A stretch of DNA of 64,000 nt from Pontiella sp. (GCA_050290185.1 JBNKHE010000001.1:706713-770712), one strand, 5' to 3'; numbered from the stretch's first letter, positions 474-43,698 are shown. The notes: generated by a model from the sequence alone, not told the origin. Numbers and translations: made by a program.

Positions 474-511
474 AAAAAAGCCAAGGCAGATACCTTGGCT
501 TCGAGATCCGT
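474..511 (-). terminator. Intrinsic terminator between convergent rex and EPS locus
   Basis: Stem AAGCCAAGG-cagata-CCTTGGCTT with an A-tract on the left, which is a U-tract on the minus strand. Confidence 0.75.
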
Positions 512-524
512 CTGCAACAGACAG

Positions 525-1184
525 TCAGGCAGAGAACACGGTCTTACGCGCATAAAAACCTTCAGCGTAGCCGGACGGGGAACAGGATTCCATGCCGCGG
601 ATGCGCATCAGCCCCAAAAAAAGCTCCTCGCAAAACCAATGCTTGGATTGCTGTGTACCAAAGAACCGCATGAGCGCAACGGCCTTTGCCCTGGCGACCT
701 CTTCCGACACCGGAATGTAAAAATTGGGAGATCCCATGTCTCCATCGTATTTTGGGATTTCATACTCCAGCACGAAGTGATTGCGAAAGGTGTTCCCGGA
801 GAGTTGGTTTATGATGCGGTGGTCCTGATGGGAATCGTCCCGGTAGTGCGTAAAGATGATGTCCGGCTCGAAGGAGCTCTTGAGCCGCTCAAAAGTCTCC
901 TTTATCCCAGCCCATTCGTTCGGAAAAAATCCGTCTCGGAAGCTATGAAAATCTGTGGCCTTGGCCTCCACCGCATCAAGCCAGTAGCCGGCGCTGACTT
1001 TAGCTTCCTCCGCCCGCGAACGGTCGCCGCTGAACACCACCCACCGTACGTCGAGCGGCTGACCGCTTTCGTGAAGCTGCAAAAGAGAGGCACCACAGCC
1101 GATTTCAATATCATCGCTATGGGCGCCCAGGCACAACACCCGCAAAGGGCTTCCGCTTTCCAATTTCGGGGTCAATTCAAGCAT
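525..1184 (-). CDS. PIG-L/LmbE family deacetylase
   Basis: AHSDDIEIGCG and HQDH metal-binding motifs. Confidence 0.9.
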   Translation of the reverse strand: MLELTPKLESGSPLRVLCLGAHSDDIEIGCGASLLQLHESGQPLDVRWVVFSGDRSRAEEAKVSAGYWLDAVEAKATDFHSFRDGFFPNEWAGIKETFERLKSSFEPDIIFTHYRDDSHQDHRIINQLSGNTFRNHFVLEYEIPKYDGDMGSPNFYIPVSEEVARAKAVALMRFFGTQQSKHWFCEELFLGLMRIRGMESCSPSGYAEGFYARKTVFSA

Positions 1185-1202
1185 CGGACCATCCCTTTCC
1201 GT

Positions 1203-1976
1203 TTAATCGTTTCTCCAGGGAGCATTGCCTTGCTCGTACAAGTCGTCGAGCATCTGCTTTTCCTTGAACGTATCCATGCAGCCCCAAAATCCAGTATACT
1301 TATGTGCATATAACTTGGATTCGGCAATCAACCGCTGGAAAGGCTGCATGACCAGCTCGTCACCTTCCTCAATGTAGTCGAAGATTTCAGGACTCAAAAC
1401 GAAGTAGCCCCCATTGACCCAAAAGTCCGCGGCGTTGGTATCCTCGATTTTTTTTACCAGCCCGGTTTTGGCATCGGCATCGACGCAATGAAAACTGTGA
1501 TAGGGCTTGATACACAAAAAGCTCGCGATGGCTCCGCGCCGCCTGTGCTCCTCGACCAGCTCCGGAATCGGTTGGTCCGTGAGTCCATCGCTGTAGTTGG
1601 CCAAGAAGACTTCCTCGCCGTCAAGATGCTCCTTCACCGCCATCAGACGCTCGGCAATGGTGGACTTCAATCCGGTATCCACGAAGGTAATGCGCCAATC
1701 ATCAATGTCGCTATGGAGCAATGTGATGTCACGGCCACCGTTTTCCATGACAAAATCGTTAGTGAGGCTTTCATCATAGTTCAGGAAGTAGCTCTTGATC
1801 GCATCGGCCTTGTAGCCCAGACAAAGGATGAAATCCTTGTAGCCGAACCTGGCATAGTATTCCATTACATGCCACAGCACCGGCCGGTAGCCGATCGGAA
1901 CCATGGGCTTGGGAATCTGGTCGGAATAATCCCGAAGACGTGTGCCCAATCCCCCGCAGAACAGAACCACTTTCAT
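1203..1976 (-). CDS. Glucose-1-phosphate cytidylyltransferase-like nucleotidyltransferase (copy 2)
   Basis: VVLFCGGLGTRL, PKPMVPIG, VDTG, NGGYFV, MDTFKE, APW motifs of the RfbF family. Confidence 0.88.
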   Translation of the reverse strand: MKVVLFCGGLGTRLRDYSDQIPKPMVPIGYRPVLWHVMEYYARFGYKDFILCLGYKADAIKSYFLNYDESLTNDFVMENGGRDITLLHSDIDDWRITFVDTGLKSTIAERLMAVKEHLDGEEVFLANYSDGLTDQPIPELVEEHRRRGAIASFLCIKPYHSFHCVDADAKTGLVKKIEDTNAADFWVNGGYFVLSPEIFDYIEEGDELVMQPFQRLIAESKLYAHKYTGFWGCMDTFKEKQMLDDLYEQGNAPWRND

Positions 1977-2006
1977 GATGCTTCCTCCACTTGCATGCCA
2001 ACTCTC

Positions 2007-3248
2007 TTACTCGACAACGTCTATCTCGGGGATCGGCACAATAAACCGACATCCCCAAGAGCGCACATGCGCCACGTTCGCCATGATCTCTTTTTTTAGG
2101 TTCCAAGGCAAAATTAAAAGATAGTCGGGACGCGCTTCGTCAATTTTTTCCAGGGGATAGACCGGAATTCGCGACCCGGGGAGCAACCGCCCATGCTTAT
2201 ACGGGTTCCGGTCCACGGTAAAGTCGATGAAGTCGGTCCCGATACCGCAGTAGTTCAACAGGGTATTGCCTTTGCCGGGAGCACCATAGCCGGCAATCGA
2301 CTTGCCACTTTGCTTGAGCTCAATCAACAACGACAGCAGGGCCCGTTTCGCCGCCTTCACCCGCGCGCCAAAACCTTCATAGGTCGCTATTTCAGCATAA
2401 CCTGCCTCCAGCTCCCGGCGACGCATGTCGAGCACCCGCGGCGTTATGTCCGCTGCGTGGGCTCCCTCGTGACAGGCATAGATGCGGATCGACCCGCCAT
2501 GGCTTGGAAGTTCTTCCACATCGAACAGGCGCAAGCCATGCGCCGCAAAGATGCGTTCTGCCACGAGAAACGAAAAATAGCTGAAATGTTCATGGTAGAT
2601 CGTGTCGTACTGGCACTGGTCGATCAACTGCATCAGATGCGGGAATTCCAGGGTTGCAACGCCGGTCGGCCGGAGCAGAACCCGGATACCTTCCACAAAC
2701 CCGTTTAGATCCGGAACCTGCGCAAGCACATTGTTGCCGATGACCAGATCCGCCTGCTGGCCTTCGGCAACCATTTTCCGCGCAACTGCGGCATTGAAGA
2801 ATTCCATCAGAGTGGGCACGCCGACCTCTTCCGCAGCCCGGGCCACGTTCTCCGCGGGCTCCACACCGAGACATGGAATCCCTTTCTCGCAAAAATTGCG
2901 GAGCAGGTAACCATCATTGCTCGCCAGCTCGACGACGAAGCTTTCCGAGTCGAGTCCAAAACGTTCCGTCACCATCGCGGCATAATCCGCGGCATGTCGC
3001 ATCCATGAATCGGAAAATGAGGAGAAATAGGCATAGTCCTTAAAAATATGCTCCGGGCTCACATACTCATCAAGTTGCAGCAACAGACAGTTTCCACACG
3101 CCATAAGCTTCAATGGATAGAAGGGCTCCATCGCGTTGTACTGGTCCGGCTCAACAAAGGATTCGCACAGCGGCGACATGCCCAAATCGACCACCGTATG
3201 TTCGAGCGGTTGGCCACAAAACCGACATAATGATTTTTGTTCGTACAT
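2007..3248 (-). CDS. NDP-hexose C-methyltransferase family SAM-dependent methyltransferase
   Basis: N-terminal CxxC...CxxC Zn site, ELASNDG SAM motif, YHEHFSYFS, HGGS, and GYGAPGKGNT C-terminal domain. Confidence 0.9.
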   Translation of the reverse strand: MYEQKSLCRFCGQPLEHTVVDLGMSPLCESFVEPDQYNAMEPFYPLKLMACGNCLLLQLDEYVSPEHIFKDYAYFSSFSDSWMRHAADYAAMVTERFGLDSESFVVELASNDGYLLRNFCEKGIPCLGVEPAENVARAAEEVGVPTLMEFFNAAVARKMVAEGQQADLVIGNNVLAQVPDLNGFVEGIRVLLRPTGVATLEFPHLMQLIDQCQYDTIYHEHFSYFSFLVAERIFAAHGLRLFDVEELPSHGGSIRIYACHEGAHAADITPRVLDMRRRELEAGYAEIATYEGFGARVKAAKRALLSLLIELKQSGKSIAGYGAPGKGNTLLNYCGIGTDFIDFTVDRNPYKHGRLLPGSRIPVYPLEKIDEARPDYLLILPWNLKKEIMANVAHVRSWGCRFIVPIPEIDVVE

Positions 3249-3375
3249 AAATAAAATAAGGGCCCGCAGGCTCCAAGGGTTGATCCCCCATCAACCGGTC
3301 CAATGACGACCGAAGGCCGGGATGCTTTGTCCCAAGGGGCGGGGCAAGGTAAAGAGTTGATGTTTAATTTCGAAA

Positions 3376-3900
3376 TTAAAGAAGTGGCCAGCGCTGATCC
3401 TTATCGCTCACAATTTTCGGTTCGACTGGCCATTCGATCCCCAGCTTCGGATCATTGTAACGCACACCACGCTCGCACTCCGGAGCATAGAAGCCCCCGA
3501 CAAGATAGTAGGCCTGGCTGTCCGGTTTCAGCGTCAGAAAACCATGTGCAAAATGGGCCGGAACAAAAAGCATCTTCTGATTTTCCGGCGTCAATTCGAT
3601 TCCGAAATGCTGCATGTATGTGGGTGATTCAGGCCGCATATCGACGATCACATCGTAGATGGCTCCACGAGTGCAACGCATGAACTTGGTCTCGGGAACG
3701 GGATCGACTTGGTAATGCATGCCACGCAACGTGCCGGCATCGCGGCTGAACGAGGTATTGCACTGCACAAAGGTCGAGGGCATGCCGTGCTCCTCAAACT
3801 CCTTTTGGCAGAACGCTCGGGCGAAATAGCCGCGTTCGTCGCCAATCGGGGTTTCGGTAACGATCCATGCGCCTTTCAGGGGAGTGGGTTCAAACTGCAT
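3376..3900 (-). CDS. rfbC: dTDP-4-dehydrorhamnose 3,5-epimerase family
   Basis: DERGYF, TLRGMHYQ, DVIVDMRPESPT, AHGF, DP.LGIEWP, SDKD motifs. Confidence 0.93.
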   Translation of the reverse strand: MQFEPTPLKGAWIVTETPIGDERGYFARAFCQKEFEEHGMPSTFVQCNTSFSRDAGTLRGMHYQVDPVPETKFMRCTRGAIYDVIVDMRPESPTYMQHFGIELTPENQKMLFVPAHFAHGFLTLKPDSQAYYLVGGFYAPECERGVRYNDPKLGIEWPVEPKIVSDKDQRWPLL

Positions 3901-3903
3901 AGA

Positions 3904-4683
3904 CTAATCCTTCCATACTTTCCAGGGAGCGTTGTTTTTGGACCAGAGATCTTCCAGCACATGCTTGTCACGAAGCGTATCCATGGGATGCCAGAAATCC
4001 TCATGCCGGAATGCGTTCAACTGCCCTTCGTGCGCCAATTGCTGCAAGGGCCGGCGTTCCCAGACCTCCGCGTCGGATTCGATGTAATCGAGCACTTTGG
4101 GTTCCAGCACAAAATAACCGCCATTAATCCACGCTCCATCGCCATGGGGCTTTTCCTGAAAATGCGTGACTTCGACCTGGTCATGCTCCAGCGTGAACGC
4201 GCCAAAACGTCCCGGAGCCATAACGGCGGCCATGGTTGCCAAACTGCCGGATTGGCGATGGAAATCGATCTCTGCCGTAATATCGATATTGCAAACACCG
4301 TCACCATAGGTCATGCAGAAGGTCTCGTCGTCAAGGTATTCACGTACACGAAGCAATCGCCCGCCCGTCATGGTTTCCTGCCCGGTATCGACACAGGTAA
4401 CGCGCCATGGCTCAACCTTTCTATGATGATATTCCGCCGTGTTGTTCGCCAGATCAAACGTCACGTCGGCTCCTGACAGAAACATCCTCGAAAAATAGTC
4501 CTTGATCATGAAGCCCTTGTATCCACACGCCACGATAAAATCGGTGATGCCATGGGAGGCATAGGTTTTCATGATATGCCATAAAATCGGCTGATCCCCG
4601 ATGCCAACCATGGGCTTGGGCCTAACGGCGCTCTCTTCGCTGATACGCGTTCCGTATCCTCCGGCTAAAATCACTGCTTTCAT
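3904..4683 (-). CDS. rfbF: Glucose-1-phosphate cytidylyltransferase
   Basis: [48 protein letters not shown]; start trimmed to ATG at 4683. Confidence 0.95.
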
Positions 4684-4702
4684 CGCTTCCTCGAATTCTT
4701 CG

Positions 4703-5911
4703 TTAACTGTTTTGGAGCTTTTCAATTTCATCGACCATATAGGCCGTAAAAGGAATAGAACAGGTCCACCCCGGGGAAACCGAGTTCAACACATGGAATG
4801 ACCGGTCATCGCCCTCAAACACGAAATCCATCTCCAGACTTTTCTTTTTTAGATTGAGCAGCTGCGCACGAATGCCCGACGGCCCCCAGTGGGTCAGTGT
4901 CGGAAAATCCAGCCCGGTGGCCAACGACTGCGACAGCCTGACAAGGTGGGCGCGGTGGTATTTGCGCAGCTCTTCGCACGCGAGGCGCCGGAAATTGAAA
5001 TCGGCCTTAAGCATCAGCTGCGAGCCCAGCCCCATGGTCTGGAGCAGCTCACCAAAATTAAAGTGCTCCATGCCCTTGTATTGCTCGCGCCAGAACGCCG
5101 GAATCGCAGTAGGGCCAATCTTGTGGTGGCCATCAACAGTGACCGTCACATGCACACCAAGAAACGGATTCTGAAGATTGGGGACCGGATATATGTTGGT
5201 CTTAAAACTGCCGGCAGGTTCGCTGGATTTAAGGTAGAGCCCCTTGAACGGCAAAATCGCATAGTTCTTTCCAAACCCAAATTGGTGCGCCACCTTGTCG
5301 GCATAGAGCCCGGCGGCGTTGATGACATAGCCCGCATTGAACTCCAGACTTTGGGTCCACACCCGGTTCCCCTTGGATTTCACAAAAGGCTCGGAGCAGA
5401 GGAACTCAATGCCCTGTTCCGAGGCATCTTTGCGGAAGGCCGCCAACACGGGCCTAGGATCGGCCGTTGCCGTTGCGGGACTCCACAAGGCATGCTTGCA
5501 GGTCTTGACCCGCGGTTCGATTTCCAATGCTTCTTTTTCGGATATCTTATGTAACTCGACGCCATTGGCCTGACCGCGCATCAGCAGCTCATCCAGGACC
5601 GCCAGTTCCGATTCATCCTTCGCCACCACCAGCTTGCCGCATTCGTTCAGCGGAATGCCGTGCTCACGGATATAGTCCTTCATTGCGGCATTGCCGTCGC
5701 GTGTAAAGCGCGCTTTCAGACTGTTGGCCGTATAGTAGAACCCGGCATGTACAACACCACTGTTGCGCCCGCTTCCATGGAGCCCCAATGTCGGCTCCTT
5801 ATCCACCACACATACCGATACCGCGGGATTACGCCGCTTCAGATGCAACGCCATGTTGATGCCGATAACGCCGCCGCCAATAATCAGATAATCTACTGTT
5901 CTTGCTGCCAT
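4703..5911 (-). CDS. lhgO: L-2-hydroxyglutarate oxidase-like FAD-dependent oxidoreductase
   Basis: GGGVIG FAD motif, [34 protein letters not shown]. Confidence 0.85.
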
Positions 5912-5927
5912 TTACGTTCTTTTCCCA

Positions 5928-6716
5928 CTAGGTTGCCGGCTTGTGTTCCCGACAGGGAAGGTACTTCCGTACGTAAGCCGAAATCTCCTCGAACGAGATG
6001 CTTTCCACCAAAGCGAAGGACAATGTGAACGGGACGGTTTCAACCAGAAAGCCAAATCCATCCTTATCGGTGCGCCCAAAGCCAAAGACCGTCATACCGC
6101 CCTTCCCGCCCATCGGCCAATAGGTGTCGACAAAGGAGTCCGGCCCATCGTAAGCCATGGCGAGACTTCGTTTTGTTTTTGGATCGCAGAATGCCACCCA
6201 TTTGGGGTCGGGGGTTGGTTCCCTGAACCTTTCCGAACACCCTCTACAAGTGCCATCCGACCAATAGACAAATTGCTTCTGCGGGTTGAATTTTCCGCCC
6301 GGAGTTCCTTCGTAAAGCAACCACACCGGCTCCGCAATCCGATGAGCAGTCATAACCGCATGGGAGGTATAGATGCTCCAGTCCACCTCCCACGCGCCGG
6401 CGGCAGCCGTTGACTTCAACGTGGCGGATGACTCTGTTTCATCCAGCAGTTCCGTTTGTCCCGTCACATAGCCCGGGTGCCCGAAGGTGTTGTAGCCCAT
6501 ATTCGGTATACCGCGATAATCGCCCCGCTCTTTCCCTTTTGGATGATAGCCGATCCAGTCGTTTCCATCCCGATCAATCAAACTGGAAAAAGCGCAGCCT
6601 TGCTTGTGATACCGATAGATAGCCCGTTCCGTCTGTATTTCAAACGACTCCTGCCCCTCATCCACCAATCCATCCCGGCATGCCACGGTCCGTTTCATCG
6701 TCTGCTCCGGATTCAT
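5928..6716 (-). CDS. Hypothetical protein (possible galactose-mutarotase-like beta-sandwich)
   Basis: 262-aa ORF coupled to the upstream gene; aromatic/Gly-rich (SSLIDRDGNDWIGY, YRGIPN, LYEGTPGG); fold is a guess. Confidence 0.7.
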   Translation of the reverse strand: MNPEQTMKRTVACRDGLVDEGQESFEIQTERAIYRYHKQGCAFSSLIDRDGNDWIGYHPKGKERGDYRGIPNMGYNTFGHPGYVTGQTELLDETESSATLKSTAAAGAWEVDWSIYTSHAVMTAHRIAEPVWLLYEGTPGGKFNPQKQFVYWSDGTCRGCSERFREPTPDPKWVAFCDPKTKRSLAMAYDGPDSFVDTYWPMGGKGGMTVFGFGRTDKDGFGFLVETVPFTLSFALVESISFEEISAYVRKYLPCREHKPAT

Positions 6717-9001
6717 TACTGGGCGGCATCCACTCGATAGAAAAACGTGTTGCTGGACTCAACCGGAAGTTGCCAGAACACGGCATCACCGGCGTTGGTC
6801 CAGTTGACCAGATCGAATGATTTTTTCAGCTGGATCCAGAGCGTTGCCGTCCCGTTTGAAACCACATACGCTGACTGTCCCATCGCGAGGTCAACCACCG
6901 AGTTCGAAGGATACAGATCGTAGGCCGAGCCGTTATTGCGGATATAATCCACGCGCCACAGATCGCTCTGTAACGGATCCCCGCCATTGGCTACTTCGAG
7001 CCCGTCATCAAATGTGTCTCCGTCACTGTCGGAATTCACCGGGCTCGTGCCCGCATTGAACTCTTCAAGATTGGAGAGCCCGTCTGCATCGGCATCGTTC
7101 GTCGAAGCGGCATTGGTGCCATACAGCCCGTAACTGCCCGCCCAGACATCCAGCGGCGTAATTTCAATCGTTGCGGAATAGACCACGGCGTTACTGGAAG
7201 CAATCGACAGCCGGACGTACACGTTGGTGGCCGGCACCGCGTCCATCCGGTTGGTCACCGTCTCGAACCCGTTGCTCAAGGACGACGTACCCATCACGGC
7301 ATAGCCGCTGTTCGTCCAGCTTCCCGGCACCGCGTTGCTGCCCAGCTCGACCACGTAGGAAAGGTCCAACGCGGCGGCATTCGTTCGCCGGGCATGGATG
7401 TAGTCCACCCAGTTGGTTCCGCCCGCCGGCGAGACCACATAGAAAGGCGCATAGCCGCTGTCGACGGCGTTGGTCGGGTTGCCGCCCATGGCGAATTCGT
7501 AGAGGTCCGGATTACCATCGACATCCGCATCGGCCAACGCATTGGTTAAAAGCGGATCAAGACCATACCCGGCCTCCCAGCCGTCGGGCATAGCATCGCC
7601 ATCGGTGTCTGCGTCCAGAGGATCGGATAAGTAGATATTCACTTCATCTCCATCACTCAGGCCGTCTGCATCGCTATCGGCAACCAACGGATCCGTGCCA
7701 TGGGTATTGATTTCGTCGCCGTCGCTAAGCCCATCAACGTCCGTATCGGCAACCAGAGGATCGGAACCATATGTGTTCACCTCAGTGCCGTCCAAAAGGT
7801 TGTCGTCATCACTGTCGCTATCCCGAGGGTCGGTGCCGAGGCTGTATTCATTCGTATTGAGCAGACCATCGCCATCTGCATCGTCGGAGAAGGTTGCTGT
7901 GATCGACTTGTTGGTATTGATAATCAAGTTCGTACTCGATGTGGTATATCCGCCGGACAGGTCGCCGCTCCATCCCACGAATAGCCAGTTTGTCTCAGGC
8001 GTCGCAATCATAGCGAGGTTGGTACCGATCACATACCAGCCGTTGCTCACGTTGACCGAGCCGTTCCCGTCAAGTATCACCTGTAGCTCGTAATAAGTGG
8101 GAGGCAACGCTGCGACCCGAAATCCGACCTCTGCATGCTCATGGGTAGGACTGAAAGAACTGTGGCGGTATCCGGCAGACATGTGGCTCTCATTTACGTA
8201 GTAGTCGCCGCCACGAATAACCCGATTTGTATTAAGATTGTCGTTGAGAGATCCTTCGTAGGCACTTTCGCACCACTCATAGAGATTCCCGTTCATGTCA
8301 TAGGTGCCGTTTTGTTCCTGTCCCCCGAAGCCCGTCTCCCAGACATAGTTGGGCGAACTGTTCGCATAATGGACCTCCAGAGTTGGATTCCATACCCATT
8401 CGGCATAGTTCCAGCCATTCGTGGTGCCTCGCAACGGCAGGTTCTGCCCGGAGGTCGAACCATTCGCGTATACCGCATACGATCCATCATTTACCGGCTT
8501 GTAGTAGGCCGCCTTAAACCACTCGTTCTCGCTGGGCAGCACATAGACTGTGCCATAAGAAAACATGGCGGCATAGCGATCCACGGCCACTAGCGTACCG
8601 TTGGTATCGAACTGATAGGCACCTGCATAGGCATCGCCGGAGGTCAACCAGTTGGCAAACCGGGCGGCCTCATACCAGGAGACACGAGCAACGGGGGCAC
8701 CGGGGCCGACCGTGCGGGTACCATCATTCCAGTAGTCCTCGTTGCCACTGCCAATGCGGCTGTCCTCGGCTCTGGCCTTGAAAAACTGTTCGACACTAAC
8801 TTCGTACGTCCCGATGCTATAGGTATGATCGACGGAACCAAACCCGGAAGAATCCGCCAGGTTTCCGGGATTTCCGATCTCCAGGAAAGCCATGGAAAAC
8901 TGATTGGAGCCCGTACCAAACGTCGCCGCCTCTACGCTGGCAACCGCCAGCGTTACGGCGAATAGTATGGTTCCTTTCACTCTGTTCATGGTCGTTTCCA
9001 T
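6716..9001 (-). CDS. Secreted SUMF1/FGE-like domain protein with InlB-like repeat, Asp-rich Ca-binding repeats and C-terminal FYR-type domain
   Basis: Signal peptide; [29 protein letters not shown]; DxDxDGL repeats; ends FFYRVDAAQ. Confidence 0.85.
7580..7885 (-). repeat. Tandem ~23-aa Asp-rich (thrombospondin type 3-like) repeats
   Basis: Repeating [12 protein letters not shown]...GTDPLxA units in the translation; coordinates approximate. Confidence 0.8.
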
Positions 9002-9041
9002 AAACCAATGGGTTCCATTAGTCTATAACTTCTAAGAAACA

Positions 9042-10211
9042 TTACAATCCCAACATTTCCGGATAAAGGCCTCGCTCCGCCAGACTTTGGCGAATCTCCT
9101 CCATATACACGGAGTTCATGACGATAACGACATCGGGTTGGTAATCCTGCAGGAAGTCGGGGTCTACATACTGGATCCCGATACCCGGAATGAAGTTGCC
9201 TTTCATGTGCGGATTGATATCCACCACGTGCTCGACAACCTCCAGATCCGCAAACTGAGTCAGGAACCCAACAGATTTGGAACCTCCGCCCCAAACAACC
9301 ACTTTTTTACCTTCCGCTTTGTAGGCTTCAAGGTTCCGACGCCAATCGCCCAGCTGAGCATTGATTTTTTTCACAAACACCTTGGTTTTGGCTTTGAGTT
9401 CCTCGATCGATTCCTCCAGCGGATGGATCTTTTCCGACGGCTCACCCACCGGCCGGGCCTCGATAAAGAGATACTGGCTGTCGTATTCCAGATACATATC
9501 GAGCACTTCAAATCCCCCCTTGCGGAACAAACGGGCAAACGATCCGGGGCTGAAGTAGGAGCAGTGTTCATAGAAGATATCCCAGAAGGCCTGGATGTCC
9601 AGAATGCGCACAATACTGGGAACCTCAAAGAACAAGACCGGTTTCGAATCGCGGCATGACGAACGAACCGTTTCCATGATCCCGATGGTATCATGTATAT
9701 GCTCCATGGTGTGGCGACAGGTAATGCAGTCCGCCTCGATGTCTCCGTGTTCGCGGGAATAGAACTCCTTGATGAAACGGACATTGGGATCCTCTTCACC
9801 GCGGCCAGGCACCCAGGCCGGATCAATACCGACCCCTTTATTATCGCCAAGCTTGCTGACCAAACGGATAAAATCCCCCTTGCCGCAGCCGATCTCTACG
9901 ACCTGCTTGTTGCGAATGCCATGCTTGTCCAGGAAGCGTTCGGTGACGCCGGTGATGAACTTGACAAACGTTGGGGAGAAGCCCTGCTGGTCTTCATAAC
10001 CCTGCGTGTAATAGTCGATCGATGTATCGAACGCGCTGTTGAAGATAAATCCGCAGGAGTTGCAAAACGTAAGCACGATATCCTGACGGGGAATCGAAAG
10101 GGCCTCCTCGCGGGTCTTGATCGTCACCAAACTCTGGGTTGGCGCATTACGGATCGTGAAAAAATCCTCCAGATCCCCGCCACGACAGTTAGGACAGGCG
10201 GTGTGTTTCAT
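9042..10211 (-). CDS. Second NDP-sugar C-methyltransferase-family SAM methyltransferase
   Basis: CPNC...CNSC Zn site, EIGCGKG, FYEHCSYFS, VVWGGGSK. Confidence 0.87.
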   Translation of the reverse strand: MKHTACPNCRGGDLEDFFTIRNAPTQSLVTIKTREEALSIPRQDIVLTFCNSCGFIFNSAFDTSIDYYTQGYEDQQGFSPTFVKFITGVTERFLDKHGIRNKQVVEIGCGKGDFIRLVSKLGDNKGVGIDPAWVPGRGEEDPNVRFIKEFYSREHGDIEADCITCRHTMEHIHDTIGIMETVRSSCRDSKPVLFFEVPSIVRILDIQAFWDIFYEHCSYFSPGSFARLFRKGGFEVLDMYLEYDSQYLFIEARPVGEPSEKIHPLEESIEELKAKTKVFVKKINAQLGDWRRNLEAYKAEGKKVVVWGGGSKSVGFLTQFADLEVVEHVVDINPHMKGNFIPGIGIQYVDPDFLQDYQPDVVIVMNSVYMEEIRQSLAERGLYPEMLGL

Positions 10212-11255
10212 CTAAATCCACTCCAGGTTGTCGTTGAGCCGCCCAAGGCTGCGATGGCGAGCCAACGTCTTCAGGCGAATGTATTGCGACTCGCGAAAGT
10301 TGGAATCGTTGAAGTTCATTTCAACCAGATTATTTCTCACCTCACGAATCGTATCTTCGAGGTTCCATACCGGCTGGTGATCCGGAGCCAGCTTCTTGTA
10401 GAGGTCAAAATTAACGCGATAGGAGCGTTTGTCCGGTACGGCGTCGGTATTCACAGTCACCTTTGCACCCGGAATCTGGACGGCAATGGCTTCGGCCAGA
10501 GGCTTGACCTGGGTATTCCATTCCGTGCAACCCGTATTGATGGCCAGAAACGCTCCTCCGTTGTCCGGCTTGCGCAACACGCCCCACTCGAAGGCCCGGG
10601 CCATATCCTTCGTGTTGATCATCGGACGCCACGGCGTACCGTCACTCAGAATGCCAATCTCCTTGTTGACGAGAGCTCCGGCGACAAAATCGTTGAGCAC
10701 CAGGTCCAGACGGAGGCGGCTGGTGAAGCCGCAAGCCGTCGCAAAACGCAGACAGGTGATGGAAAATCCTTCATCAGCGAGCGGTTCCAGATCTTTTTCT
10801 GCGGCTACCTTGGAACGGGCATAGGCCGTTAGAGGGTTGAGTTCATCGTCTTCCTTTTTCGGGAATTCGCTCGCCGCTCCGTACATACTGCAGCTGGAGG
10901 CGTAAACAAAGTTTTTCACCCCCTTGCGCTTGCACATTTCGGCCAGCCGGATGGCTGCCCGGTAGTTGACATCCATAGTGACTTCCTCGAACTGGTTGCC
11001 CATGGGATCGTTCGAAATGGCCGCCAGGTCGATCACGGCATCAACCCCGTCGAGCAACTCTTCCGGGAACTGCCGGATATCTGCAAACACCTGCCGGTTG
11101 AGCTTGAGTTCGGGAAGGAAACCCGCGTTGCTCAGACAATGTGCGAAGTATCCGATATCAACGCCGATCAGCTCGGCGTCTGGAAAGGTTTCGCGCAACC
11201 GCTCTGCCACGCTGGGACCAATGTACCCAAGATTTCCAACGATGATGATTTTCAT
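10212..11255 (-). CDS. NAD-dependent epimerase/dehydratase (extended SDR)
   Basis: GNLGYIG, LAAISND, SSCSMYG, YARSK. Confidence 0.9.
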   Translation of the reverse strand: MKIIIVGNLGYIGPSVAERLRETFPDAELIGVDIGYFAHCLSNAGFLPELKLNRQVFADIRQFPEELLDGVDAVIDLAAISNDPMGNQFEEVTMDVNYRAAIRLAEMCKRKGVKNFVYASSCSMYGAASEFPKKEDDELNPLTAYARSKVAAEKDLEPLADEGFSITCLRFATACGFTSRLRLDLVLNDFVAGALVNKEIGILSDGTPWRPMINTKDMARAFEWGVLRKPDNGGAFLAINTGCTEWNTQVKPLAEAIAVQIPGAKVTVNTDAVPDKRSYRVNFDLYKKLAPDHQPVWNLEDTIREVRNNLVEMNFNDSNFRESQYIRLKTLARHRSLGRLNDNLEWI

Positions 11256-12334
11256 GTAGCACTCCCGTTTGTTGTTTTATTTTTAAAATTCGACATGGCC
11301 AGCCAGCCTAGAAGACCGCCAATCAGTGCGCCAGTCAGGTTGTAAACCAGGTCCGGTGCACATGGCACCCGGTTCATGATATAGCGTTGCAGACATTCAA
11401 TCGTCAGGCTTGCGGCCCCTCCGAAGAGTAGCGGGATCACCACGGCCGCTAGTAATCTACGCTGTTCCAGACGCTCGGGAAGAAGCAGGTAGACAAAGAT
11501 CCCCAGCGGAATAAATCCCGCAATGTTAAAGAAACAGTCATCTAAGTTGCATGCGATCTCATCATGCATAACGAACAGGTTTCGATAGTGCAAAGGTCGC
11601 AATCCCATGGACCGAAGCCCGGACTTCCGCGTCACGGCATCAAAGTCATATGCCAGAACAGCCCCGGGCACCTCTTCATCCTGAGCCAGCCGCTTTGCTT
11701 CGCCGGCGGTTAGCGTACGATCATATAACGCCACGCGCCAAATATGCCCCGCCCAGCCGTCTCCGCCTGGCGGAAGATCCCCAAGCAACAGGACCTGATC
11801 CCGACCCCAGTTCTTAAAACCGCCATTCAGTTCATCCGATTCAGCCCGCAGTATTCCATCCACATAGAGCGCGGTATAGTCGCCGTCATACGTCACCACG
11901 ACGTGCTGCACCCGGTTGGTATCCAGACTCTGCGGCACAATCAGCCTGCCCCGCAATCCACCATGATCCGTCCGCGTGGTTCGCAGACGGAAATCCAAGG
12001 CGTTGCCTTCCTGCCCGAGAGAAAAATTGCGGTTCATGTTACCGCGCGCATATCCAAAGATGTTGGCGGCACCCACCTGCTTTAATGAATCCGTCTGAAG
12101 GCATGCCTCGATCGACAGCTGTCCCGTCTGCATCAGCGCTTCACGAATATGTTTTCCACCGCGACGGTCTTCCAGTGCGGCATCGCGCTGCACGTGCACT
12201 GCACCATCAGCAAAAGCGAGATCAGCCGGCGCGTATTGCAGGCCGCGGATCGGTCTAAAGGGGCGGAAGGCAAAATAGACCATCACCAACAGATAGAGGC
12301 CCGCCAATATACCAATCAGCCGCTTGTTCGTCAT
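11252..12334 (-). CDS. VanZ-family membrane protein with inserted LamG/concanavalin-like domain
   Basis: N-terminal TM; LamG motifs (HVVVTYDG..LYVDG, LYDRTLT); C-terminal VanZ motifs (NIAGFIPLG, IECLQ, R...DLVYNLTGA). Confidence 0.82.
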   Translation of the reverse strand: MTNKRLIGILAGLYLLVMVYFAFRPFRPIRGLQYAPADLAFADGAVHVQRDAALEDRRGGKHIREALMQTGQLSIEACLQTDSLKQVGAANIFGYARGNMNRNFSLGQEGNALDFRLRTTRTDHGGLRGRLIVPQSLDTNRVQHVVVTYDGDYTALYVDGILRAESDELNGGFKNWGRDQVLLLGDLPPGGDGWAGHIWRVALYDRTLTAGEAKRLAQDEEVPGAVLAYDFDAVTRKSGLRSMGLRPLHYRNLFVMHDEIACNLDDCFFNIAGFIPLGIFVYLLLPERLEQRRLLAAVVIPLLFGGAASLTIECLQRYIMNRVPCAPDLVYNLTGALIGGLLGWLAMSNFKNKTTNGSAT

Positions 12335-15093
12335 GGTTGCCGCACCGGTGTCTCTAATGTCCGTTGAATAATTTCGCCCATTTCTGGAATATCAAGCACA
12401 TCGGTATGGCTGCCGCCAATGGCATGCGCCTCGAAATTTCCATCGCAAAGATCCGCAAATCCGAGAAACGGATCTTCCCACCATCCCGGCAGGCCAAAAT
12501 AGCGTCCGACAACACAATCCGAACGGAAATAAAGCATGTCCCCTTTCAAACGCGAACTGCGGTGCCGTCTGACCGCTTTGACCATCGAACGCAAGCAATG
12601 CTCTGCGCGCCATTCCATTGGGATGGATTGGCCCGCCAGGTGGATCTTCAAAATCTTCCAACGTAACGGCAAAAGCTTCCATTCGCGCTTCATTTCCTTG
12701 CCCCATCGCAGCAGCCTGATCAGACCCGGAATCGCCCGGATCTTCGCGGCGTTGCCCACCGGAGGCGTATAATCGGATTCGGGCAGTTGATAGTGATCGC
12801 CCGTGTCCAGCCGGATGGCCTCGAGATCGGCTTTCATTTTATTAAACAGTTCAATATTGCGGGCGCTGTCCCATGGCTCATCCCGGCGATAGTGCCGCGA
12901 TTCCAGATTGGGTGAATCCCAGACCATCAACGGATAGATTACTTCCCGTCCCATCGTCTCCAGCTCCCGAACCAGTTCGATGGCAATCATCCCCCCGATA
13001 CAGTAGCCCCCCAACCGGACCGGACCTTCAGGGAGGAAGCGAACCAGCTCGTTGCAGTATTCCTTCGCCATCTGGCGGATATTCGCGGAGCCGGGTCGGC
13101 CATCCCACCCCGGCCACTGAAAGGCGTATACCGGTTGCCGACGGTCCATCATGTGCACAAAATCATGGTATACAAGTACGTTCCCTTGGCCTCCATGCAC
13201 CAGAAACAGCGGAGGAATGCCGGACTCTCCCTGCTGGATCATTTTCAACGACCGGAATGCCGAAAGGTCGGGGATATCGCTTTCTCCGTCGATCAACCTG
13301 GCCAACTCCGCAATGGTGGAGGCGTGGGTCAGTGTGGAAAGGGACAGATCCATTCCAAAGTGCTGCTGGATCTTCAGGAACAAAGTAACAGCGCGCAGCG
13401 AATCGCCGCCCAGCTCAAAAAAATCGGCCACACGCGGAATGCCGTCGAGCCCCAACAGTTCACTCCAAATTTCAGCAAGCCCCTCTTCGGTCGCCGATTC
13501 GTAGCGGACTTCTTCTCCGGCATACTGACTGTTTTCAATCGACGGCTTCGGCAGCGATTTGAGATCAACCTTGCCGCTTGGAGCATACGGAATCCGCTCG
13601 ATCTGGATCAGAAACGCCGGAACCATATAATCGGGCAGCTTGGCATCAAGATGGCAACGCAACTCCGCAAAAGACACTGAAGCCCCGTCCTGCACGGTGT
13701 AATATGCCGCCAGTTGCTGCGCACCATCCGAACCGACAAAGGCATGCGTCAGGCATTGGCTGATGCCCGCCAGCTGTGAAGCGGCATTGTTGATTTCGCC
13801 CGGCTCGATCCGATGCCCGAGTATCTTGACCTGATGATCCCGCCGTCCATGGAAAAGGATACTTCCGTCCGGAGCATAGGAGGCCAGATCTCCCGTTTTA
13901 TAGAGTATGGGGCGCTCCGGGACTTCGAATGGATTGAGATGAAACGCCTGCTTCGTGAGGTCATCGCGTCCAATGTAGCCATGCGCCAGGTTGCGCCCGG
14001 CCAAATAGAGCTCGCCGGTTTCACCGTCGGCAACGGGTTGCATGCATTCATCGAGGATGCAGGTTCCACAGTTCTTGAGCGGCGTTCCGATAGAAGGGAG
14101 ATCGGGCCAGCGTGAAGGATCGCCTTCCAGAAGATACGCCGTGATGACGTGCGTTTCCGAGGGCCCGTATTGATTATCCAAAGAAGAGCCTTCAACCTTC
14201 CGGAAAAACGTTCTGACCGTGTCGTCGACCCGGAGTTGTTCTCCGGCGGTGATTACCTCTTTAAGCGAGCGTGGATAGATGCCGATCATATGGGCAGCCT
14301 CAATCATGCTACGCATGGCGACATAAGGAAGGAAGAGCCGCTCCAGCCGTTGCCCGACCAGATAGTCCAGCAGCTTACGCGGATCTTTACGGTCATCATT
14401 GGTAATCAGGTGCAACACTCCGCCCGAGGCAAGCGTCGTGGCAATTTCCTGGAAGGAAACATCAAAGCTGATACTTGAATACTGGAGCACCCGCGCAGAC
14501 GGTTTGAAGGTTGTGCGTTCCAGCTGCCATTCAATCAGGTTGGCCAGCGCCCGGTGCGGCATGGCAATTCCCTTCGGCCGGCCGGTGGAGCCGGAGGTGA
14601 AGATCACGTAGGCCACGGTCTCGGGATCGATCTCGATCCCAACCGGATCCGCAGGTTCGCCAGGCAGGCACTTTTCAAGATCCTCCCAAACGAAAACCGT
14701 TCCATTTTCGTCGTCAAACATTTCAGCATGACTACGATGCGACAGAATACAGCGCAACCCGGCATCTTCCTGCATCATGGCCAGCCGCTCCGCCGGATAG
14801 GCCGGATCGAGGGGCACATAGGCGGCACCAACCTTGAGAATTCCCAATAGGGACGCAACCATTTCAATGGAGCGGTCCAGACATATTCCGACGCAATCAC
14901 CCGGCTGGACACCGGCATGCAACAGGTAATGAGCAATCTGGTTGGATTGGCAATCCAGCTCGCCATAGGTTAGCGACCGGCTACCGAAAACCAGAGCCGG
15001 CTGCGAAGAGTGGACGGCCATGGCGACATCGATCCATTCCACCACGGTGGCATGGAGCATCGGTTCATCGGGAAGTGGAAGTAGATGATTCAT
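12331..15093 (-). CDS. Stand-alone NRPS-like protein, adenylation-thiolation-thioesterase (A-T-TE)
   Basis: YVIFTSGSTGRPKG, SFDVS, YGPSE, YKTGD, GRRDHQVKILGHRIE, SGKVD; PCP DFFELGGDSL; TE LVHGG...GGYCIGG...GGSH. Confidence 0.93.
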   Translation of the reverse strand: MNHLLPLPDEPMLHATVVEWIDVAMAVHSSQPALVFGSRSLTYGELDCQSNQIAHYLLHAGVQPGDCVGICLDRSIEMVASLLGILKVGAAYVPLDPAYPAERLAMMQEDAGLRCILSHRSHAEMFDDENGTVFVWEDLEKCLPGEPADPVGIEIDPETVAYVIFTSGSTGRPKGIAMPHRALANLIEWQLERTTFKPSARVLQYSSISFDVSFQEIATTLASGGVLHLITNDDRKDPRKLLDYLVGQRLERLFLPYVAMRSMIEAAHMIGIYPRSLKEVITAGEQLRVDDTVRTFFRKVEGSSLDNQYGPSETHVITAYLLEGDPSRWPDLPSIGTPLKNCGTCILDECMQPVADGETGELYLAGRNLAHGYIGRDDLTKQAFHLNPFEVPERPILYKTGDLASYAPDGSILFHGRRDHQVKILGHRIEPGEINNAASQLAGISQCLTHAFVGSDGAQQLAAYYTVQDGASVSFAELRCHLDAKLPDYMVPAFLIQIERIPYAPSGKVDLKSLPKPSIENSQYAGEEVRYESATEEGLAEIWSELLGLDGIPRVADFFELGGDSLRAVTLFLKIQQHFGMDLSLSTLTHASTIAELARLIDGESDIPDLSAFRSLKMIQQGESGIPPLFLVHGGQGNVLVYHDFVHMMDRRQPVYAFQWPGWDGRPGSANIRQMAKEYCNELVRFLPEGPVRLGGYCIGGMIAIELVRELETMGREVIYPLMVWDSPNLESRHYRRDEPWDSARNIELFNKMKADLEAIRLDTGDHYQLPESDYTPPVGNAAKIRAIPGLIRLLRWGKEMKREWKLLPLRWKILKIHLAGQSIPMEWRAEHCLRSMVKAVRRHRSSRLKGDMLYFRSDCVVGRYFGLPGWWEDPFLGFADLCDGNFEAHAIGGSHTDVLDIPEMGEIIQRTLETPVRQP

Positions 15094-16268
15094 TCAGTTC
15101 CTTCAAAATAGTAGTTGTTCACAACGCGTGCGCCATCAGGCTGGCTCAGGACGTCGACATGGTTGCCACCCACGACATATCCCTTGAAATCGCCGGTGCA
15201 CAGATCGCCGAAGCCCAGGAATGGATCTGACCACCATCCCTGCAAATTCATCGGACGTCCAAGAATTACATCGGAACGGAAGTAGGTCACGGAACCGGGA
15301 TAACGGACCGTGAACCGCTTTTTCAAAGCGAAGTAGCTTGTTGTCATGCAATAGATCCAGCGCCATTTAACCTGCACCGGCCTATTGAAGAAGAGACGTA
15401 GCTTCATCGGGATCGTGCCAACGATGATTTGCGTGGTGCGGGCAAAAGTATAGATCCTGGGGAATCGGCGCAGCATTTCGTACGTTCCGCTGAACTGAGT
15501 CGGAGTGACCAACGGCTCGCAGTCGGCCTTCAATGCGCATCGATGCTCTTCCAACTCCGACACCATCCGCCGGAATTGAACGTAATCATCAGATGAATAC
15601 CATGGCTCCCGGCGGTGATAGCTGCTGGAACCGACATTCGGAGCATCCCATATAAATACAGGCCCCTCGATTTCCCGTCCTTTCGACTGGAGTATCTGCG
15701 CCACTTCGAGCGCAATCAGGCCGCCAATGCAATACCCCCCGAGACGCAACGGCCCGGTGGGATGAAAGCGGATCAGTTCATCCGCATAAGTCGTTGCCAT
15801 GGCGTGCAACGTTTTATCGCCCCGGCGCCCATCCCATCCGGTCCAGCGGAAGGCATAAACCGGAATTCTGGAATCCAGAAGTTTCGTCAAACGACGAAAT
15901 ACCCTGGCGTTTCCATCCCCTCCGTGTACCAGAAACAGCGGAATCACGTCAGGATCTCCCGGCCGAATACACTTAAGAGCCCTGTACTGTTCCGCGCCAT
16001 GAGTCTTCAGAGCGTGATCGATAACCTGTGCCAGATTGCGGATCGTGGGAGGTAACGAAAGGTCAAAAAGCGGGATTTCCTGTCGATGGTGCCGACGAAC
16101 CCGTTCATACACCTGCAGCGCCAGCAGCGAGTCGCCGCCGATATTGAAAAAATCATCGTCCAGGCCCACGTCGGGCAGATGCAGGAGTTCCTTGCATAAA
16201 TCGAGCAGGAGCTTCTCGGACGATGTGGGTTCGGGCATGGAAGTTGAAGGTTTCATGGCTTTATTCAT
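15090..16268 (-). CDS. Carrier protein-thioesterase didomain (T-TE)
   Basis: DDDFFNIGGDSL phosphopantetheine site; TE LVHGG...GGYCIGG...WDAP...GGNH; clear paralogue of the A-T-TE C-terminus. Confidence 0.88.
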   Translation of the reverse strand: MNKAMKPSTSMPEPTSSEKLLLDLCKELLHLPDVGLDDDFFNIGGDSLLALQVYERVRRHHRQEIPLFDLSLPPTIRNLAQVIDHALKTHGAEQYRALKCIRPGDPDVIPLFLVHGGDGNARVFRRLTKLLDSRIPVYAFRWTGWDGRRGDKTLHAMATTYADELIRFHPTGPLRLGGYCIGGLIALEVAQILQSKGREIEGPVFIWDAPNVGSSSYHRREPWYSSDDYVQFRRMVSELEEHRCALKADCEPLVTPTQFSGTYEMLRRFPRIYTFARTTQIIVGTIPMKLRLFFNRPVQVKWRWIYCMTTSYFALKKRFTVRYPGSVTYFRSDVILGRPMNLQGWWSDPFLGFGDLCTGDFKGYVVGGNHVDVLSQPDGARVVNNYYFEGTE

Positions 16269-16313: not shown

Positions 16314-17093
16314 CTATTTACCGCCGTGAAAAAACTGGCGAAGTTTGCTGAGGTTTTTCCAGGCCAGCGTATGCCCCCCTCCGATTTTGTGACGGCGGAT
16401 GACCTGCCAGTCTTCTTTCATCTTCTGGATGATATGCCCCAGACTGCGGTTACTGATTCCGCCAACCCGCATCTTGACCAACATCATTCGAAGGTATGCG
16501 GGTTCCACCTCGTATTTCGAAAGAATGCGCATCATAAAATCATAATCAGCCGCACAACTGAACGATGTGTCGAAATACTCACCATTGTCCAGCATGGCGC
16601 GCTCATACACCTCGCGCCGGAGGTACAGCGTCGGATGCGGCGGCATCCAACCCCACTTCAAATTGCGATGGTAGTAAATGCCGCTCTCCCAGTGACGGAC
16701 AACAGCAAATCCCCCGTCCGGATTCGGCCTTACATACTGCAAATCGCCATACACGGCCTCGGCCCCGGAATTTTCGAAAGCGCATGAAACCCGGCTAAGC
16801 ACGTTGGGGCTTGCGAAGAAATCATCGGCATGCAAAAACCCGACAACATCTCCCGAGGCCATCCGCACCCCTTTGTTCAATGCATCGTAGATGCCGTTGT
16901 CCCTTTCCGACAGCAACCGGTCAGGCTGGAACTCCGAATCCTTGATCACGTGCAAGGTTCGATCCGAGGACGCACCATCCACCACAATCCATTCGATCTG
17001 GTCGCGCGGGAAGTCCTGTTCGGCGATCGATCGCTGTGTATCGGCAATGCTGGCCTCGGAATTGTATGTTGCTGTGATGATGGAAAACTTCAT
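16314..17093 (-). CDS. Glycosyltransferase family 2 (WcaE-like)
   Basis: MKFSIITATYN, VDGASSD, GIYDALNKG, FLHADD, PPHPT; start trimmed to 17093. Confidence 0.92.
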   Translation of the reverse strand: MKFSIITATYNSEASIADTQRSIAEQDFPRDQIEWIVVDGASSDRTLHVIKDSEFQPDRLLSERDNGIYDALNKGVRMASGDVVGFLHADDFFASPNVLSRVSCAFENSGAEAVYGDLQYVRPNPDGGFAVVRHWESGIYYHRNLKWGWMPPHPTLYLRREVYERAMLDNGEYFDTSFSCAADYDFMMRILSKYEVEPAYLRMMLVKMRVGGISNRSLGHIIQKMKEDWQVIRRHKIGGGHTLAWKNLSKLRQFFHGGK

Positions 17094-26264: not shown

Positions 26265-27455
26265 TTACATCTTGGCGACTTCTTCAACCACCTGAATCAA
26301 GCGTTGTTTCCATTGCTCCATCGTAAAATTCCCGGCCTGCTGAAGAGCCCCTTCGGCCAGACGGTTGCGGAGTGCGCGGTCGTTCACAATGCGACCCAAT
26401 GTGTCGGCCAGTGCGGCGGCGTCGCCAGCGGGCACGGTCATGCCGCATCCATCCTCAAAGTCCACGCCGCTCTCCCGGGTTGCCACGACCGGACACCCGC
26501 AGGCCATCGCCTCCAGCAGCACGCCGGCCTGACCTTCCGAAAGCGATGGAAGAACAAAAACATCGGCTTCTTCGTATTCACGATGCATCTGATCCATCGG
26601 AAGGCGGCCAAGACAATTAAGTTCCTCCCGATGCTCCATCCATAGAATCGAAGACGGATCAACTCCGGCTACACGGACTTCAATATCGCTTCCGGATGCC
26701 CGCAGGAGATGAGCCGCTTCAGCCAAGTAATGCAACCCTTTTCTCAACGCTTCCCGGCCGGCAAAAAGAATGCGTCCCGGCCGCGTATGAGTGTTGATGG
26801 AATCCCGGCTCTCCAGACTGCTACCATAAGGAACGATACGGAGCTTATCTGCATATTCCGGATTGAATGAACGCACCCCCTCCGCAACCCATTCGGAGGG
26901 ACATAGTAAAATGTCGGCCAACTTCAACGTTCGCTCTGTATGCCGATCTTCGGCGGCAATCTTCCCGGCCACGGAGCCCGGGGAATCCAGGTAGCGGGAT
27001 TCCTCTTCCGCAAAAATACGGTTCGTTGATGGATGAACGAATACATCCACAATAATTCGAGCTCCCTGCTCCTTGGCCCACTCCAGAAATCCGGCATCTT
27101 CGCCGTACATGCTGTATATGACCTGCGCACCTTGCAGCCCCCAGTGCCGATATACCCCCGAGAGATCATTCGAACATCCCGGTAAACGGGGGGCCAGCGC
27201 CCGATCAGAACTAAAAATCTTTTTACCCGGAATCCCCCCAGGTACACGCGAAGCAAGTGCAACCAGTCCCGCAGACCGTACCCCTGCGGCCACAACCAGG
27301 CTAGCCAGTCGACCCGCCGCACTATAGGCGGAAGAATCGGTGTACAACGCAGCTAACAAGCCTGATTCCTCCAGCAACCGAGGCACGGCATACCGCCTTC
27401 GAGCACCTCGCTGACAGGCAAGGACAAGGGCATTTCCCGCCGGATTACGCGACAT
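26265..27455 (-). CDS. Glycosyltransferase family 4
   Basis: FAGREALRKG, LPSLSEGQAGVLLEAMACG; start trimmed to 27455. Confidence 0.92.
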   Translation of the reverse strand: MSRNPAGNALVLACQRGARRRYAVPRLLEESGLLAALYTDSSAYSAAGRLASLVVAAGVRSAGLVALASRVPGGIPGKKIFSSDRALAPRLPGCSNDLSGVYRHWGLQGAQVIYSMYGEDAGFLEWAKEQGARIIVDVFVHPSTNRIFAEEESRYLDSPGSVAGKIAAEDRHTERTLKLADILLCPSEWVAEGVRSFNPEYADKLRIVPYGSSLESRDSINTHTRPGRILFAGREALRKGLHYLAEAAHLLRASGSDIEVRVAGVDPSSILWMEHREELNCLGRLPMDQMHREYEEADVFVLPSLSEGQAGVLLEAMACGCPVVATRESGVDFEDGCGMTVPAGDAAALADTLGRIVNDRALRNRLAEGALQQAGNFTMEQWKQRLIQVVEEVAKM

Positions 27456-29783: not shown

Positions 29784-29820
29784 TCGGCGGTACTCCAGAT
29801 TTCTCCTTAAGCGATCAATC

Positions 29821-43589: not shown

Positions 43590-43698
43590 CGATTTCTTCT
43601 TCCTAGAATTGCTGTTCAATGCCCACTCGCTCTCCCCCAAGAGCTGCTCCGAATCCGATCACCGGAAAATCCGAAACAAGAACGGACATATCGACATG

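Follow-up and report, generated by a model that had tools for sequence, protein, structure and literature searches.

This study concerns an enzyme of the non-ribosomal peptide synthetase (NRPS) type, consisting of an adenylation (A), a carrier (T) and a thioesterase (TE) domain, which is encoded within a surface-polysaccharide locus of a marine Pontiella species. It lies in a 64,000-nucleotide stretch of DNA (GCA_050290185.1 JBNKHE010000001.1:706713-770712), called the window hereafter, at positions 12331-15093 of the minus strand. On balance, this A-T-TE protein would seem to be an aminoacyl transferase, whose cysteine-type thioesterase passes an amino acid to a cytidine diphosphate (CDP)-sugar or to a lipid-linked repeat unit of the surface polysaccharide. 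It belongs to a family that is small and uncharacterised, real, conserved and apparently undescribed, and that appears to be a variant of carrier-based aminoacylation. No description of an A-T-TE(Cys) family was found in a literature search covering few subscription journals and no supplements; those of PMC7356697 and bioRxiv 10.1101/2025.01.14.632903 could list these genes.

Architecture of the A-T-TE enzyme and of its family

Three open reading frames (ORFs), 15090-16268, 12331-15093 and 11252-12334, follow each other on the minus strand, and the letters ATGA were read at all three overlaps (15090-15093, 12331-12334 and 11252-11255), as expected from the initial annotation. Pfam assigned PP-binding and Thioesterase domains to the first product, AMP-binding, PP-binding and Thioesterase domains to the second, and Laminin_G_3 followed by VanZ to the third. 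The layouts first proposed, T-TE and A-T-TE, were therefore retained for two of the proteins, but the third is ordered transmembrane (TM)-LamG-VanZ and not VanZ-LamG, because Laminin_G_3 is placed ahead of VanZ. The module is flanked upstream by a GT2 glycosyltransferase and a uronate-epimerase-like short-chain dehydrogenase/reductase (SDR), and downstream by an SDR, a C-methyltransferase and a glucose-1-phosphate cytidylyltransferase cassette, so that its placement between GT2/epimerase and CDP-sugar genes was also borne out (Pfam, curated models). A condensation (C) domain, already reported missing from the window, was absent from the 48 window proteins scanned, and the host genome, 95.5% complete, gave 0 matches. 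Carrier-domain matches in this genome were three in number, namely A-T-TE, T-TE and one 83-aa frame.

The 920-aa A-T-TE protein, the core of the system, scored above the cut-off of TIGR01733 and, by motif reading, retains the amine-binding Asp211, Lys508, the carrier Ser565 and the residues Cys698, Asp726 and His896. Its A domain (13549-15021, minus strand) carries the proline-like code DVQFIAQVIK, for which the motif register of GrsA was used rather than an overlay of structures. The best single-A-domain match in the PDB was tyrocidine synthase 2 (291 bits), which we take to be proline-specific. The related codes DVQFVAQVVK and DVQFVSQVMK are tabulated as Pro, and DAFWLGGTFK as Val, in PMC9113097. 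Proline is the substrate predicted from the code of this domain.

The carrier domain (13291-13482, minus strand; Pfam) contains serine 565 in a GGDS motif, and is followed by a thioesterase (12361-13257, minus strand) with the motif GYCIGG and a long helical lid. In this thioesterase, as in that of T-TE, a Cys replaces the usual Ser, giving a Cys-Asp-His triad. The structure model of the A-T-TE thioesterase is an alpha/beta hydrolase (pLDDT 90) whose top fold match is the Cys-TE of AB3403; the conserved Asp is placed behind the strand that succeeds the nucleophile helix, and the nucleophile motif reads Tyr-Cys-Ile. A segment of the lid (residues 781-845; 12559-12753, minus strand) is basic, with a net charge of +5 to +18 (median +11) that is positive in 76/76 homologues, and could form a membrane- or anion-binding surface. 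The Cys nucleophile and the basic lid fit a transferase role. As far as sequence can tell, the module is condensation-free and its catalytic residues are intact.

A profile built from 24 TEs returned 16 representatives at E < 1e-60, all of at most 1,099 residues, followed by generic TEs. A second family search yielded the 76 proteins on which all counts out of 76 are based. Two metagenome matches (L077, L078), being of the Ser-type C-A-T-TE, were left out of the family counts, and 17 duplicate loci were removed from the locus set; the family tree was a quick tree. The catalytic Cys and the carrier Ser are found in 76/76 homologues, the triad Asp in 70/76, the His in 71 of the 74 proteins covered at this position, and the amine-binding Asp (code position 1) in 75/75 covered. 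A Pfam C-domain label was given to 0/76 homologues, and 28/29 module-bearing genomes of the genus have no C domain. Some homologues possess an N-terminal remnant of about 200 residues whose match to a C domain is confined to its second half (E 1e-16), and none of the 4 such extended proteins checked has an HHxxxDG motif.

The code DVQFIAQVIK is carried by 50 of the 76 homologues and close variants of it by 7; 7 others are valine-type, 3 presumably glycine-type, and 9 of other types. Neighbouring modules of one locus (L026) share 76% identity in their TE but 33% in their A domain, and homologue P0228 compares with the window protein in the same way (61% versus 34%). These identities indicate that A domains for proline, valine, glycine and other substrates are exchanged on one thioesterase chassis. 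Loci contain one to three tandem modules, with tandem arrangements in L026, L033, L035, L038 and L073; the arrays of L033 and L035 combine a glycine-type, an unassigned-type and a proline-type module. Cultured, non-pathogenic carriers of the family are Fodinibius sp. SL11 (L071), with a proline-like code, Pontiella sulfatireligans F21 (L065), with a valine code, and Pontiella agarivorans (P0232). One member (L032:1905-5537; P0245 is similar) lies outside any glycan locus, has the code DAEYIAQVIK, has lost the catalytic His and overlaps a PhyH dioxygenase gene; it has possibly been repurposed. In genomes of a sister family within the order (G040-G059), a TE profile weakly matched open frames some 2,350 aa long.

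Genomic neighbourhood of the module

Neighbourhoods were counted for family members alone. The TE family is present in 29/53 genomes of the genus, and in a class-wide sample 6/201 genomes matched, all within the genus. Immediately ahead of the module lies a WcaE-like GT2 gene (16314-17090, minus strand; Pfam, curated models and genus orthologue search) that marks a conserved slot: its orthologue (E < 1e-100) was found in 29/29 TE-bearing genomes, and none of the 17 genomes lacking it carries the TE. In 24 of the 29, the module follows this GT2 on the same contig, either immediately or one to two small steps further on; in 4, contig ends intervene and the module is found beside RfbF, SDR or LamG-VanZ; the last one is L032. 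Because 24 of 29 genomes use the same slot, the locus context of the module is more than chance, although these genomes are kin and not independent. An RfbF-family gene occurs in 29/29 TE-bearing versus 9/24 TE-less genomes, a contrast inflated by assembly gaps. The slot behind GT2 is variable, and other cassettes occupy it in other genomes. In the same variable region, a module-less relative (L079:2463-7807) has genes for a 3-hydroxyacyl-CoA dehydrogenase, an acyl-CoA dehydrogenase and an ATP-grasp protein, which may form another kind of acyl-donor cassette.

The search beyond the genus gave 10 loci, 7 of which place the module among nucleotide-sugar or Wzc genes (Ilumatobacteraceae, Balneolaceae, Granulosicoccus). 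Their neighbours include RfbF in 5 loci and a DRL-type oxidoreductase in 6, RmlC and Wzc occurring as well, and the code is proline-like in 10/10. Overall, members of the family occur in the sugar-polymer clusters of four different phyla of bacteria. Homologues sitting mostly outside polysaccharide loci had been named from the start as an outcome that would speak against a role in polysaccharide aminoacylation; almost all were found in polysaccharide or nucleotide-sugar loci, and this objection therefore falls.

The CDP-sugar cassette downstream of the module (525-11255, minus strand; Pfam, curated models) is the candidate source of the acceptor. It comprises an SDR gene (10212-11255), two C-methyltransferase genes (9042-10211 and 2007-3248), and genes for an LhgO-like oxidase, RfbF (3904-4731) and an RmlC-like protein, together with a second cytidylyltransferase-like, a PIG-L, an FGE/TSP3 and a 262-aa protein. 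Its product may be a branched-chain sugar. A dihydrohydroxystreptose route was considered and not adopted, the accessible part of PMC9095892 containing no matching gene set. Similar cassettes, with RfbF, an RmlC-like protein, SDR, a DRL oxidoreductase or LhgO-like oxidase, C-methyltransferases, DUF4910 and PIG-L, recur in L023, L030, L062, L063 and L068.

Accessory genes and other features of the window

T-TE (15090-16268, minus strand) is a didomain of 392 aa, or of 382 aa if translation starts, as it may, at the second Met, as in P0001. It is a paralogue, without an A domain, of the C-terminal region of A-T-TE, sharing 36% identity over 384 aa with its last ~390 residues, and is accessory: it was found in 3/29 module-bearing genomes of the genus, always directly upstream of a proline-type A-T-TE. 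T-TE sequences form their own clade of 12 rows (SH-aLRT 100), the Ser, Cys, Asp and His are retained in 11/11 full-length proteins, and non-synonymous divergence (dN) is 0.28-0.44 against a synonymous divergence (dS) above 2.7 or saturated. Clade, intact motifs and dN/dS together rule out a fresh pseudogene. Judged on its sequences, T-TE is maintained but optional. An apparent T-TE in L086 turned out to be a frameshifted A-T-TE and was not counted.

The TM-LamG-VanZ protein (11252-12334, minus strand; 360 aa, three hydrophobic segments) is a frequent but non-obligate neighbour. It accompanies the module in 17/29 genomes of the genus, is missing from the other 12 and from all 10 loci outside the genus, occurs in 3 TE-less genomes, and in G074 stands without the module. 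Its Atlas cluster numbers 5,196 members and is commonest in Acidobacteriota. The protein scored above the Pfam VanZ cut-off; of the helix-4 motif DxDDxxxN given for the VanZ-1 Lipocone proteins, visual inspection of the corresponding stretch showed just a single Asp together with the Asn. According to a preprint (bioRxiv 10.1101/2025.01.14.632903), which also points to lectin fusions, the proposed targets of VanZ domains are the head groups of lipids and polysaccharide intermediates carried on lipids; this would explain the place of this gene in the operon without the NRPS. The initial annotation had made this protein the membrane partner of a three-part machine in which two carriers relay the amino acid. 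Given the distribution above, the relay can only be an optional feature, the membrane partner is not required, and the machine was drawn too tightly; the tighter partner of the module is the CDP-sugar cassette, rather than T-TE or LamG-VanZ.

The only match to a phosphopantetheinyl transferase (PPTase) in the host genome is an Sfp-type protein of 256 aa (G000:C1:705714-706484, L041), encoded about 230 bp to the left of the window. Several relatives, with or without the module, also have a PPTase at the end of the polysaccharide locus. Its closeness was discarded as support, since a terminator and an opposite-strand gene intervene and 48/53 genomes of the genus, module-less ones included, have a PPTase.

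The scan of the 48 proteins revealed a minus-strand gene train running from Wza, Wzc and Wzx through a series of glycosyltransferases to the module and the CDP-sugar cassette. The Wzx/Wzy-type genes upstream (17101-38236, minus strand; Pfam, curated models) encode the uronate-epimerase-like SDR, a GT2/GT4 series, a WcaF-like acetyltransferase, a Wzy-like protein (27445-28758, a weak call at 24 bits against a cut-off of 40), a pyruvyl transferase, Wzx, Wzc and Wza. The train ends at a terminator-like 11-pair hairpin (477-502, minus strand; consensus match only), and a promoter scan gave matches below shuffle expectation. Upstream of wza lies a pectate-lyase-like protein of 1,449 aa (39291-43640), relatives of which occupy this position in L091 too. 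Three proteins have FGE-sulfatase-like domains (6716-9001, 35104-36270 and 44888-47698); one of them, with TSP3 repeats, sits within the CDP-sugar cassette and has longer versions at the same place in relatives. Two ORFs without Pfam match (5928-6716 and 28773-29858) are conserved in the polysaccharide loci of relatives (~65% and 29-43% identity, respectively). An EF-G-like protein of 677 aa (52322-54355) is encoded outside a ribosomal operon.

Possible function of the module

If the A-T-TE protein is an aminoacyl transferase, the housekeeping Sfp-type PPTase, which is present, would prime Ser565, and the A domain would adenylate proline or a close analogue, as predicted from its code, and load it on the carrier. 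By analogy with SulM and ObiF chemistry, the aminoacyl group would then shift to Cys698 of the TE, forming a second thioester, from which it would pass to an amine or hydroxyl group on an acceptor in the cytoplasm. The resulting link could be an ester, an amide or, following rearrangement, N-linked. This acceptor would most likely be a CDP-sugar made by the downstream cassette, or else an undecaprenyl-linked repeat unit prior to flipping by Wzx. Where present, T-TE would be charged in trans by this A domain and would handle either a second acceptor site or a second residue, and LamG-VanZ would be an optional neighbour outside the core.

In architecture the module resembles MysE, in its presumed purpose AlmEFG and Dlt, and in the proposed delivery of a proline-derived group to a sugar the CloN proteins; it is a member of none of these systems. 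In the DltABCD system, an adenylation enzyme and a carrier, with DltB/DltD as transferase, act on teichoic acid. The analogy with Dlt drawn initially concerns the presumed purpose, aminoacylation, and is loose: MBOAT (DltB) and DltD Pfam domains are absent from the scanned window proteins, the A, T and TE-fold domains are fused and soluble here instead of residing in separate proteins with an AlmG or DltB/DltD transferase, and the DltA models scored below cut-off (NF003417, 236.8 vs 476 bits; TIGR01734, 214.6 vs 559.85 bits). In A-T-TE enzymes that dimerise alpha-keto acids (TdiA/AtrA/RalA type), the amine-binding Asp at code position 1 is lost, whereas the present family keeps it. According to PMC4278540, AlmEFG of Vibrio cholerae uses an adenylation enzyme and a phosphopantetheine carrier to aminoacylate a surface glycoconjugate, lipid A; Pfam detected no AlmG-like acyltransferase in the operon. 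MysE (Ava_3855), the shinorine synthetase, is an A-T-TE that adds serine to the small acceptor mycosporine-glycine (PMC12232313); both are single A-T-TE proteins without a C domain and the acceptor of MysE is not a peptide. MysE differs in using serine and belonging to a mysABC cluster, whereas the present enzyme has a proline-like code, a polysaccharide operon and a T-TE paralogue, and no mysABC-type cyclase or ATP-grasp neighbour was found among the 48 proteins. For clorobiocin, PMC11218499 describes proline activation, two carrier proteins and acyl transfer to a sugar hydroxyl by CloN4/CloN5/CloN1/CloN7. Those proteins stand alone, an antibiotic is their acceptor and CloN3 oxidises the proline to pyrrole; among the scanned window proteins, no acyl-CoA-dehydrogenase gene belongs to the operon.

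As for the thioesterase, AB3403 has the same Cys nucleophile and is also the top sequence match of T-TE. Its catalytic acid follows strand beta-6, as in the present family, and that of SulM and ObiF follows beta-7, with a Gln-Cys-Asn motif (PMC11298585); the acid site and motif of the latter two, which form beta-lactam or beta-lactone rings, are unlike those found here. AB3403, SulM and ObiF1 all have C domains, which the module lacks. AB3403, itself uncharacterised, shares 19% TE identity with the family, whose lid is much longer. A Roseobacter NRPS/PKS/glycosyltransferase/PPTase cluster, in which the NRPS gene is conserved beside a glycosyltransferase and the product is unknown (PMC4337385), differs in being a hybrid NRPS-PKS with its own PPTase and not a single A-T-TE(Cys). 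An NRPS in the flagellin glycan locus of C. difficile, considered as a precedent, was dropped, since the accessible text of PMC5207246 has no such terms.

Several observations weigh against a polysaccharide aminoacyl transferase. Of the 36 GT2-bearing genomes, 7 have no TE (two on short or broken contigs) and several of these retain CDP-sugar genes; the cassette therefore does not need the module, which is accessory. Most of the genomes counted are kin from one genus, and in three of the loci outside it (L061, L075, L076) no more than one or two neighbours relate to glycans. The triad acid is Gly in 6/76 homologues, and two members are frameshifted (L086:10350-10620 and L068:8700-8850), one of them where the carrier motif has a run of G, through sequencing error, decay or phase variation. 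The accessible text of PMC7356697 describes the Pontiella exopolymer as sulfated and hexosamine-like and mentions there no NRPS or amino-acid substituent. Finally, the two Cys-TEs characterised in PMC11298585, SulM and ObiF, cyclise and release small molecules.

This last point would suit a small molecule released in free form (for example a diketopiperazine, a prolyl dipeptide or a free sugar bearing an aminoacyl group), made by TE ligation in a module merely co-expressed with the polysaccharide. Amino acids could be paired in the absence of a C domain by A-T-TE acting with T-TE, or by two to three modules in tandem. We consider this improbable, if the best placed of the alternatives: a single module is enough in most loci, the loci compared contain no recurrent dedicated exporter, tailoring set or regulator next to the module, and the glycan setting is kept across phyla. 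A little less probable is an aminoacyl transferase with another acceptor, in the manner of AlmEFG, be it a membrane lipid, lipopolysaccharide or protein-linked glycan. The basic amphipathic lid, the lipid-directed role proposed for VanZ in the preprint cited above and a PglK-like ABC flippase in Balneolaceae loci agree with it, but the recurrent neighbours are nucleotide-sugar enzymes and glycosyltransferases, not lipid A or phospholipid enzymes, and LamG-VanZ is too often missing. Least probable, in our opinion, is that the module rides as a passenger in a slot of variable insertions, its function having nothing to do with glycans and T-TE being an editing (type II) thioesterase. The variability of the slot, the L032 copy and the frameshifted copies point that way, but unrelated phyla with different loci also place the module among CDP-sugar genes, and T-TE, which is under purifying selection, keeps a carrier serine, which an editing enzyme would not need.

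The modules could also be interchangeable amino-acid cartridges that decorate glycans, with Cys-TEs replacing C domains and tandem modules (those of L033 and L035, or T-TE with the proline-type module in the window) relaying residues from TE to TE, so that a short peptide is built on a polysaccharide sugar; this we regard as unlikely.

Amino-acid substituents are common on bacterial polysaccharides in structure papers, and the enzymes responsible are often unknown. The A-T-TE family offers a candidate that is compact, soluble and encoded by one gene, and whose substrates can be predicted and are exchanged in nature (Pro, Val, Gly); it can thus be tested by one enzyme assay and one polymer analysis. 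If the proposal is true, it would add a thioesterase-as-glycan-transferase route alongside Dlt and Alm and possibly a tool for sugar aminoacylation, and would give a first handle on AB3403-like Cys-thioesterases.

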